DNA of 4,439 bases, from IMG/VR virus record IMGVR_UViG_2671180411_000006; one strand, written 5' to 3'. Shown here piece after piece: positions 267-615 of this stretch (its first letter is position 1; each line of letters starts with the position of its first letter). The position numbers and the translations under genes are program-made. The notes below the pieces were generated by a model that was not told the origin of the DNA, searched no databases, and saw nothing but the letters and a program-made list of their open reading frames with translations. Origin of the DNA: a virus (Duplodnaviria > Heunggongvirae > Uroviricota > Caudoviricetes).

Positions 267-341
267 TGGAGCGGGCAGCGGGAATCGAACCCGCATCATC
301 AGCTTGGAAGGCTGAGGTAATAGCCATTATACGATGCCCGC
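267..341 (-). tRNA. tRNA-Gly (anticodon UCC), 75 nt including encoded CCA
   Basis: Reverse complement folds as a cloverleaf: acceptor GCGGGCA/UGCCCGC, anticodon stem UCAGC/GCUGA, loop CUUCCAA, T-loop UUCGAUU, 3' CCA. Matches my recollection of E. coli glyT; not verified by alignment. Confidence 0.9.
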
Positions 342-344
342 ATA

Positions 345-420
345 TGGTGCCGACTACCGGAATCGAACTGGTGACCTACTGATTACAAGTCAGTTGCTCT
401 GCCTGCTGAGCTAAGTCGGC
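345..420 (-). tRNA. tRNA-Thr (anticodon UGU), 76 nt including CCA
   Basis: Reverse complement: acceptor GCCGACU/AGUCGGC fully paired, D-stem GCUC/GAGC, anticodon stem ACUGA/UCAGU, loop CUUGUAA, T-loop UUCGAUU, CCA. One A-C mismatch in the T-stem. Confidence 0.85.
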
Positions 421-422
421 GC

Positions 423-499
423 TGGCCCACCACCGAGGACTCGAACCTCGCACCGTCAACTTAGAAGGTTGATGCTCTATCCGGATGAGCTAGTGGTGG
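423..499 (-). tRNA. tRNA-Arg (anticodon UCU), 77 nt including CCA
   Basis: Reverse complement: acceptor CCACCAC/GUGGUGG (C1-G72 start), D-stem GCUC/GAGC, anticodon stem UCAAC/GUUGA fully paired, loop CUUCUAA, T-stem CGAGG/CCUCG, T-loop UUCGAGU, discriminator G, CCA. Confidence 0.8.
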
Positions 500-500
500 T

Positions 501-577
501 TGGTGGCCCTTGCTGGACTTGAACCAGCGACCTGGCGATTATGAGTCGCTCGCTCTGACCAACTGAGCTAAAGGGCC
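501..577 (-). tRNA. tRNA-Ile2 type (anticodon CAU, presumably lysidine-modified to read AUA), 77 nt including CCA
   Basis: Reverse complement GGCCCUUUAGCUCAGUUGGUCAGAGC...CUCAUAA...GGUUCAAGUCCAGCAAGGGCCACCA. Acceptor and T-arm fully paired; closely resembles my recollection of E. coli ileX/ileY rather than elongator or initiator tRNA-Met. Confidence 0.85.
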
Positions 578-586
578 GGAGGCAGA

Positions 587-615
587 ATAATAACCATATG
601 TCATCACATCTGCAA
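587..615 (-). promoter_or_regulatory. Putative sigma70 promoter for the tRNA cluster
   Basis: Minus strand reads TTGCAG (-35, 615..610), a 17-nt spacer, then TATTAT (-10, 592..587). This puts the predicted start 2-3 nt upstream of the mature 5' end of tRNA-Ile at 577. Confidence 0.45.

Follow-up and report, generated by a model that had tools for sequence, protein, structure and literature searches.

A four-gene tRNA array in the late region of a lambdoid prophage: composition, relatives and a probable role in codon supply

That lambdoid phages can carry genes for transfer RNA (tRNA) just downstream of Q, the late antiterminator gene, has been known since the 1990s. In Shiga toxin (Stx) phages (933W-type, Stx2a_F349) the cluster ileZ-argN-argO follows Q and a tR'-like terminator and precedes stx and the lysis genes. 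In phages SfI, Sf6, ST64T, PS3 and 21, which are also lambdoid, tRNA-Thr(UGU) lies directly downstream of Q and its partner is tRNA-Asn(GUU) (PMC3636060). Here we describe an array of four genes, tRNA-Ile2(CAU), -Arg(UCU), -Thr(UGU) and -Gly(UCC), in a stretch of 4439 nucleotides (nt) from IMG/VR virus record IMGVR_UViG_2671180411_000006 (Caudoviricetes); this whole stretch is referred to as the window. The array occupies the same slot between Q and the lysis genes as the Stx-phage cluster, as an earlier interpretation made from the letters alone (the sequence-only reading) had proposed, and it is best placed with the lambdoid late-region tRNA clusters. Its likeness to the SfI group is one of slot and anticodon, and its Thr gene is accompanied by Ile2, Arg and Gly in place of Asn. 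In our view the array is probably a functional, compact operon in a lambdoid late-gene leader that would supply codon decoding capacity, a reading to which we give a probability of roughly 0.6.

ARAGORN identified four tRNA genes in the window and no more, each of them on the minus strand. The Rfam family RF00005 matched all four with scores of 56–70 bits and E-values of 1e-10 to 1e-14, compared with a gathering score of 29 bits. The Prokaryotic Genome Annotation Pipeline (PGAP) labels the identical genes tRNA-Ile, -Arg, -Thr and -Gly in RefSeq genomes that hold a 100% identical copy, and the 3' CCA is encoded in each gene. The genes run head to tail with spacers of 1 nt between Ile and Arg (position 500), 2 nt between Arg and Thr (421–422) and 3 nt, TAT, between Thr and Gly (342–344). 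The four tightly packed cloverleaves of the sequence-only reading are thereby confirmed by three annotations, and the predictors accepted all of the folds.

ARAGORN labelled the CAT gene Met. Since PGAP labels the identical gene tRNA-Ile, and since by inspection it keeps the ileX/ileY-type body (C4-G69, C5-G68, C29-G41, U12-A23 and A73), we assign it to the AUA-reading Ile2 class and not to elongator Met. It is identical at 71/77 positions to K-12 ileY and at 74/77 to Stx-phage ileZ. We note that A27 stands opposite C43 in the phage gene, in contrast to the G27-U43 of host ileY; with change on both sides, a non-standard A-C is left in the anticodon stem, and this opposition is common to all of the sampled relatives that were aligned. 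The Arg gene, which by inspection has A20, C35, U36 and G73, matches host argU at only 58/77 positions but Stx-phage argN at 64/77, and therefore belongs to an old phage lineage. The Thr gene is identical to K-12 thrU at 74/76 positions. The two differences, U16C and U20C, are both in the D-loop, and the anticodon arm (positions 27–43) is the same as that of thrU, with CUG/CAG, a 5-bp stem and an intact UAAUC/A site (the slash marks a cleavage point that is discussed below). The Gly gene matches K-12 glyT at 75/75 positions, an identity that the sequence-only reading had suggested and that proves to be exact.

The evidence that bears most directly on function is codon usage. The host reads AUA, AGA/AGG, ACA and GGA with the products of low-copy genes (ileX/ileY, argU, thrU and glyT, respectively). 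Codon usage in the prophage of Escherichia coli FDAARGOS_944, which carries an identical array, was compared with that of 48 K-12 genes and expressed as odds ratios. The codons read by the array were enriched 2.2–3.7-fold in late genes and 1.9–9.7-fold in early genes: AUA 3.7-fold in late and 4.6-fold in early genes, AGA 3.2- and 9.7-fold, ACA 2.3- and 3.4-fold, and GGA 2.2- and 1.9-fold. When the 59 synonymous codons were ranked by the shift in relative usage, AGG was first, AGA second, AUA third, ACA fifth and GGA sixth. The fourth, CGA, is what the slot-2 scaffold (the second gene of the array) reads in Stx phages, where its anticodon is UCG. Over-use of ACA relative to the host has previously been given as the rationale for the Q-proximal tRNA-Thr(UGU) of phage SfI (PMC3636060). 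The codon supplementation that the sequence-only reading had offered as one possibility fits these values well, since the cognate codons lead the list of over-used codons in a prophage whose array is identical. We regard the codon match as the strongest functional evidence and codon supply as the best explanation of the array.

A σ70-type promoter candidate precedes the array, as had been suspected. The promoter scan returned TTTGCA-18-TATTAT at 616–587, for which TTGCAG-17-TATTAT is a better alignment; the −10 element ends 9 nt ahead of the mature 5' end of tRNA-Ile. The pattern TTGCWR-N17-TAYYWT-N9-tRNA is present in 56 of the 60 four-gene arrays that had enough upstream sequence, and TTGCAA-17-TATTAT-9 is also found upstream of ileZ in Stx2a_F349. 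Among the four-gene arrays there are 11 distinct spacers between the hexamers, which in our reading fall into about five unrelated sequence families. Because the hexamers and their spacing are conserved while the spacers diverge, a real promoter is favoured; this is good comparative evidence, and it argues for a dedicated promoter of predicted activity. A second match, TCGGCA-16-TATAAT at 326–353, was discounted, as its TATAAT is the D-arm of glyT and is present in the host gene.

In the most consistent interpretation of these data, transcription would start at the dedicated σ70 promoter and leave a leader of about 2–3 nt before tRNA-Ile. In an intact induced phage, RNA polymerase modified by Q would also read through the tR'-like terminator and add to transcription of the array. 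Spacers of 1–3 nt are too short to accommodate RNase E sites. The units would be separated by RNase P, which would cut at every 5' end, and 3' exonucleases would trim the 1–3-nt trailers to the encoded CCA; both steps are established for some polycistronic tRNA operons of E. coli. The mature tRNAs would add decoding capacity for AUA, AGA/AGG, ACA and GGA, and translation would be faster for early as well as late phage proteins and perhaps for further genes that the lysogen acquired horizontally.

Several points weigh against this interpretation. These A-ending or rare codons are enriched in horizontally acquired DNA of enterobacteria generally, and the codon match is therefore not peculiar to this phage; moreover, ACA and GGA are not strongly limiting in E. 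coli. In relatives with UUU in slot 2 the array reads the commonest Lys codon, and supply of rare codons is therefore not the sole force at work. The prophage is defective in the genomes most like the source of the window (see below), so a benefit to late genes is not the current selective reason there. Finally, expression and processing of the array are predicted from its sequence features.

Comparison with the Stx-phage cluster indicates a shared first half. The likeness extends over the first gene (ileZ), the second scaffold (argN), the 1-nt spacer between them and the promoter motif, and positions 423–594 of the window are approximately 88% identical to the ileZ-argN region. In Stx2a_F349, argN carries the anticodon UCG and argO, which follows after a 13-nt spacer, carries UCU, whereas UCU is found in slot 2 of the window. 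The window's Arg(UCU) is therefore an argN scaffold with a different anticodon. The statement that the array keeps the Ile2 and Arg(UCU) genes of the Stx cluster thus holds for the ileZ and argN homologues but not for the anticodon, which in the Stx cluster belongs to argO. In place of argO the window has a fused Thr(UGU)-TAT-Gly(UCC) pair, and no stx genes follow. A homologue of argO was not found as the third gene: argO matches the window's Thr gene at 57/77 positions and host argU at 56/77. The same values give no sign that argO arose by remodelling of a Thr gene or that the C16/C20 D-loop came from argO.

The second half of the array resembles the host operon thrU-tyrU-glyT-thrT-tufB of E. 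coli, in which the two counterpart genes stand in the same order. The window differs in having neither tyrU, thrT and tufB nor the host spacers of 8, 116 and 6 nt; TAT joins the two genes directly and phage genes surround them. Direct comparison with the host operon left no host spacer, tyrU, thrT or tufB sequence in the array. For this reason, and because phage genes flank the array on both sides, a host tRNA operon lying at the edge of a prophage, the alternative against which the sequence-only reading had warned, was ruled out.

To follow the Thr-Gly junction, we searched with the 3' end of the Thr gene, any three bases and the 5' end of the Gly gene. The sample comprised at least 120 IMG/VR contigs and ten stretches from species-representative genomes, giving at least 130 loci from five genera. 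The species-representative matches were from E. coli, Shigella flexneri, Escherichia ruysiae, Citrobacter braakii and Enterobacter hormaechei, with one 423-bp contig labelled Corallococcus. Among the 130 loci listed, 58 were Thr-Gly pairs, 38 were Ile2-Lys(UUU)-Thr-Gly arrays, 19 were Ile2-Arg(UCU)-Thr-Gly arrays of the window's type, the third commonest composition, and 15 were oddities. The Thr-Gly spacer was TAT in 128 of them. As the junction is shared across the sample and the host spacers are gone, the pair appears to be one old host-derived fusion that has spread among lambdoid phages. One suggestion of the sequence-only reading is not supported by this result. Recent capture of the Gly gene from the host or recombination with it is at odds with a TAT junction that recurs in several genera and with the loss of every host spacer; the identity to glyT is better read as reflecting constraint, or possibly gene conversion, than recent capture. 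Nor is the arrangement unusual, given the 19 arrays of the same type and the Q-proximal tRNA-Thr(UGU) genes already published (PMC3636060). The array as a whole is best described as a mosaic of an old phage pair homologous to ileZ/argN and an anciently fused pair of host thrU-glyT origin.

Compensatory changes are present in the stems. In the acceptor stem of the Gly gene C6-G67 has become U6-A67 in approximately 50 of the loci listed, and in slot 2 A3-U70 has become G3-C70. Such paired changes indicate purifying selection on the array. The C16/C20 allele of the Thr gene was found in 28 of the 130 arrays listed: it is carried by 18 of the 19 Arg-type arrays and by some two-gene arrays, and is absent from the Lys-type arrays.

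What slot 2 reads is variable. Its scaffold bears three anticodons across prophages: UCU in the window, UCG in Stx-phage argN (L149, Stx2a_F349; L numbers denote individual loci) and UUU, for Lys, in L007, L008, L017 and about 35 other IMG/VR loci. The Lys(UUU) version has C33 for the near-universal U33 and U73 for G73, together with the G3-C70 pair. This looks like an alloacceptor anticodon switch on a single scaffold. In two further loci (L079 and L122) a Thr(UGU) body carries G35T, which changes the anticodon to UUU, and A26G, and the arrays read Ile2-Lys-'Lys'-Gly; a non-host tRNA-Lys(UUU) may have arisen here by a second route. The 'tRNA-Val' at 3005–3075 of the E. coli CFSAN029787 locus (L002) is of another kind. 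It is a decayed Gly copy with C35A, A37G, a 1-nt deletion in the 3' strand of the acceptor and CAA in place of CCA, and it sits exactly where homology to the sequence downstream of the array in the window stops. A functional anticodon switch was ruled out for this gene in view of A37G, the acceptor deletion, the change of CCA to CAA and the recombination breakpoint. In UMNK88 the Thr gene has an extra base.

The alternative that survives best, although we consider it unlikely, is that the array mainly replaces host tRNAs destroyed by abortive-infection nucleases (P2-OLD, AriB of PARIS and HepS of Gifsy-1), with U16C making the Thr tRNA a poorer AriB substrate. P2-OLD kills λ-infected cells mainly through removal of the anticodon arm from tRNA-ThrU; tRNA-Thr(UGU) is the primary lethal target in P2-λ interference, and phage Thr(UGU) tRNAs bring rescue (PMC12445682). 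The prime targets of AriB are the Lys(UUU) and Thr(UGU) tRNAs, cut at UAAUC/A, and a second AriB monomer contacts U16-U17; U16C impaired cleavage of tRNA-Lys, and T5 tRNAs have C16 (PMC12409363). PARIS protects against λ (PMC9122126), and HepS is triggered by the lambdoid tail-tip protein J and cleaves Thr isoacceptors including UGU (PMC13043305). It is therefore of interest to this explanation that one of the only two differences between the window's Thr gene and thrU is U16C. The relatives add to this. Their slot-2 Lys(UUU) has a non-host scaffold with C16 and C33 and lacks the AriB site UAAUC/A. Resistance to P2-OLD needs both an altered CNG motif and a shortened anticodon stem (PMC12445682). 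This two-factor rule is matched by Thr alleles of the relatives in which G42Y and U43C reduce the length of the anticodon stem and abolish the 3' CAG; such alleles recur on at least five haplotype backgrounds. These alleles, in which G42U or G42C together with U43C breaks the 27-43 and 28-42 pairs, were seen in L010 (E. coli VL40), L016, L021, L036, L038 and L124.

The window itself fits this explanation less well. The anticodon arm of its Thr gene is fully host-like, its Gly gene is 100% identical to that of the host, and cells were protected from P2-OLD little or not at all when host thrU was over-expressed (PMC12445682). The effect of U16C was measured on tRNA-Lys and not on tRNA-Thr. The C16/C20 allele occurs solely in arrays of the Arg type and in two-gene arrays, and no sampled array pairs a 'resistant' Lys gene with a C16 Thr gene. 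A tie between C16 Thr and Lys(UUU) arrays, which evasion of PARIS would predict, was looked for and the opposite was found. As the C16 Thr allele is absent from Lys-type arrays, its distribution looks like lineage haplotype structure rather than coordinated selection. We know of no nuclease that targets tRNA-Ile2(CAU) or tRNA-Gly(UCC).

The clusters of T4 and T5, which carry nuclease-resistant Lys, Thr and Asn variants, offer a further comparison. They are also closely packed and include Thr(UGU), and the window's Thr gene shares the C16 reported for T5 (PMC12409363). In T5, however, there are substitutions at and around the AriB site in the anticodon stem, whereas the arm in the window is that of the host; the phage of the window is, moreover, temperate and its array has only four genes. 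Set beside the nuclease-resistant class of phage tRNAs, the window's array has a Thr gene with the same anticodon as the targeted host tRNA but, with Thr 27–43 equal to thrU and Gly equal to glyT, it lacks the substitutions in the anticodon arm or cleavage site, and its C16 follows array lineage. It thus shows only the weakest marks of the class. The anti-nuclease idea of the sequence-only reading is helped in one respect, in that U16C hints at evasion of PARIS (PMC12409363), and is opposed by the host-identical Gly gene and Thr anticodon arm.

A broader form of this explanation takes the Q-proximal arrays to be evolving counter-defence cassettes directed against the Toprim and HEPN tRNases of rival elements (P2 old, PARIS of P4 and P2 hotspots, and Gifsy HepS), a proposal that we hold to be doubtful. 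The features that would fit it are the Thr escape alleles (U16C, and G42Y/U43C in relatives), the re-targeting of slot 2 among UCU, UCG and UUU, and a partial resistance of the C16/C20 Thr tRNA to AriB, and we put only low confidence in these being signs of such a cassette.

The coordinates of the features discussed here and below are given in Table 1.

Table 1. Positions of the tRNA genes and neighbouring features in the window.
Feature	Position	Strand	Basis or remark
tRNA-Ile2, anticodon CAU (CAT), predicted lysidine type	501–577	−	ARAGORN; Rfam 70.5 bits; first in operon
tRNA-Arg, anticodon UCU (TCT), argN-like phage slot-2 scaffold	423–499	−	ARAGORN; Rfam 56.4 bits
tRNA-Thr, anticodon UGU (TGT), thrU-like	345–420	−	ARAGORN; Rfam 69.8 bits
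tRNA-Gly, anticodon UCC (TCC), same as host glyT	267–341	−	ARAGORN; Rfam 64.9 bits
σ70-type promoter candidate: TTGCAG (615–610), 17-nt spacer, TATTAT (592–587)	587–615	−	Promoter scan
3' half of intrinsic terminator, tR'-like (stem GAGCGGG and U7)	666–679	−	Other half in N mask
Trailer of about 260 nt, tRNA-Gly to terminator-like hairpin	1–266	−	100% identical to L001 and L144
ORF6N antirepressor-like gene	start 1399	−	Pfam; between Q and tRNAs
sRNA-Xcc1	1437–1520	−	Rfam, above threshold
C4 antisense RNA	1654–1737	−	Rfam, above threshold
isrK, ending in terminator-like hairpin and U6	1763–1839	−	Rfam, above threshold
c4-a1b1	1800–1852	−	Rfam, above threshold
Late antiterminator Q	1880–2287	−	Pfam Phage_antitermQ, E = 2.7e-52; gene calls in identical loci 1880–2266
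RusA	2256–2627	−	Pfam; upstream of array
DnaB-type helicase	2881–4272	−	Pfam; upstream of array

The location of the array was established from its neighbours and from identical loci. An exact-protein look-up of RusA led to six chromosomes (L143–L148) that match the window with 100% identity to either side of a masked stretch of 256 N (680–935); the whole window was not found intact in complete E. coli genomes or phage records. In these genomes 187 nt correspond to the 256-nt mask, whose length thus differs from that in the relatives, and within them lie the 3' end of the ORF6N gene and the sequence AAACCCGCCGATGAGCGGGTTTTTTT, the full hairpin of the intrinsic terminator whose 3' half is seen in the window. 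Equivalent tR'-like hairpins are present in L001, L007 and L010, and the terminator lies approximately 90 nt upstream of the tRNAs. Downstream of the array the identical chromosomes have genes for a class II holin, lysozyme, Rz, an HNH protein, terminase and portal. With Q upstream and holin, lysozyme, Rz and terminase genes downstream in 100% identical genomes, the array lies inside a prophage, and the position downstream of Q in the late region that the sequence-only reading had assigned to it is upheld, with the qualification that Q is not directly adjacent to the tRNAs: an antisense-RNA/ORF6N module and the N stretch intervene. Positions 200–677 are also 100% identical to the FDAARGOS_944 prophage (L001), which is integrated beside ybhA and has the array flanked by a Q-like gene (DUF1133) and a holin-RrrD-lysis cassette.

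The intervening module and the trailer merit brief description. Between Q and the ORF6N gene four Rfam RNA matches follow in a row (1437–1852). Together with ORF6N they look like an antisense-controlled antirepressor module of the P1 immI or Gifsy-1 isrK type that has been inserted into the late-region leader. On the other side of the array, the terminator-like hairpin (AACTGCCTTGGCTGGCGGTT followed by a T-run) starts at about position 8, runs off the edge of the window and corresponds to 19790–19809 of L001; in identical loci the holin gene is approximately 415 nt beyond the window edge. The 266-nt trailer matched no Rfam family, and its fold z-score of −1.04 was not significant. It contains a perfect palindrome, CACAATATTGTG, at 220–231 and an imperfect hairpin of about 25 bp at roughly 75–150, and parts of it are kept in arrays with other flanks. 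In two-gene Thr-Gly arrays (for example L018, L020 and L023) the upstream region, about 130 nt before the Thr gene, differs from that of the four-gene arrays. There we see a −35 of the TTGAC(A/G) type with a −10-like element downstream, and also a leader of about 70 nt, variable in its interior, in which the two ends pair in a conserved stem, GGTTCYGAGGGG ... CCCYTGARGAACC, that abuts the 5' end of the tRNA. A structured leader is one possibility here, a qut/tR' element another.

The state of the prophage bears on a second alternative, namely that the array is a lysogenic-conversion trait: constitutive expression from its own promoter would aid the host in translating AT-rich acquired genes, such as those of a virulence plasmid or island, and not a phage that is a dead remnant. 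In the six identical genomes the element is a remnant bounded by insertion sequences (IS) which runs from DnaB to portal, with no integrase or immunity region nearby (locus coordinates 1–20372), yet the array and its promoter are 100% intact. With its exact RusA indexed in 3772 collection blocks, the remnant seems to be fixed, clonally, in a widely sampled lineage; nor does the conserved promoter depend on Q. About 8 kb upstream in these genomes, beside a DUF5508 gene, we noted a tRNA gene of the host that resembles ileY and is 92% identical to 500–577 of the window. Against the conversion-trait explanation, the array is also found in apparently complete prophages and the same modules in isolated or induced phage genomes, so that it did not evolve for this host lineage, and its intactness in the remnants may simply reflect recent decay of the prophage. 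We consider this explanation improbable.

That the tRNA genes are neutral passengers, hitch-hiking in a recombination-prone slot between Q and lysis without significant effect on phage or host, is very unlikely: the slot is indeed highly mosaic (the same array stands behind at least four Q or antiterminator types and ahead of differing holin types) and decayed copies exist in CFSAN029787 and UMNK88, but most copies are intact, stems change in a compensatory manner, the promoter hexamers are kept while the spacers diverge and the anticodon set matches the top-ranked over-used codons.

We therefore return to codon supply as the preferred account of an array that is in itself ordinary, as its exact sequence is already annotated in RefSeq and its arrangement is common in enterobacterial prophages. 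What is new is the picture at the level of the family: a conserved dedicated promoter, a Thr-Gly core of host origin that is found across genera, an interchangeable slot 2 (UCU, UCG or UUU) and a quantitative match of anticodons to codons. Because tRNA-Thr(UGU) is a key target of P2-OLD, PARIS and HepS, the prophage Thr alleles (C16/C20 here and the stem variants at 42–43 in relatives) are ready-made test substrates. These three systems all restrict λ-like phages, and the alleles could show whether tRNAs serve immune evasion in temperate phages as they do in T5.

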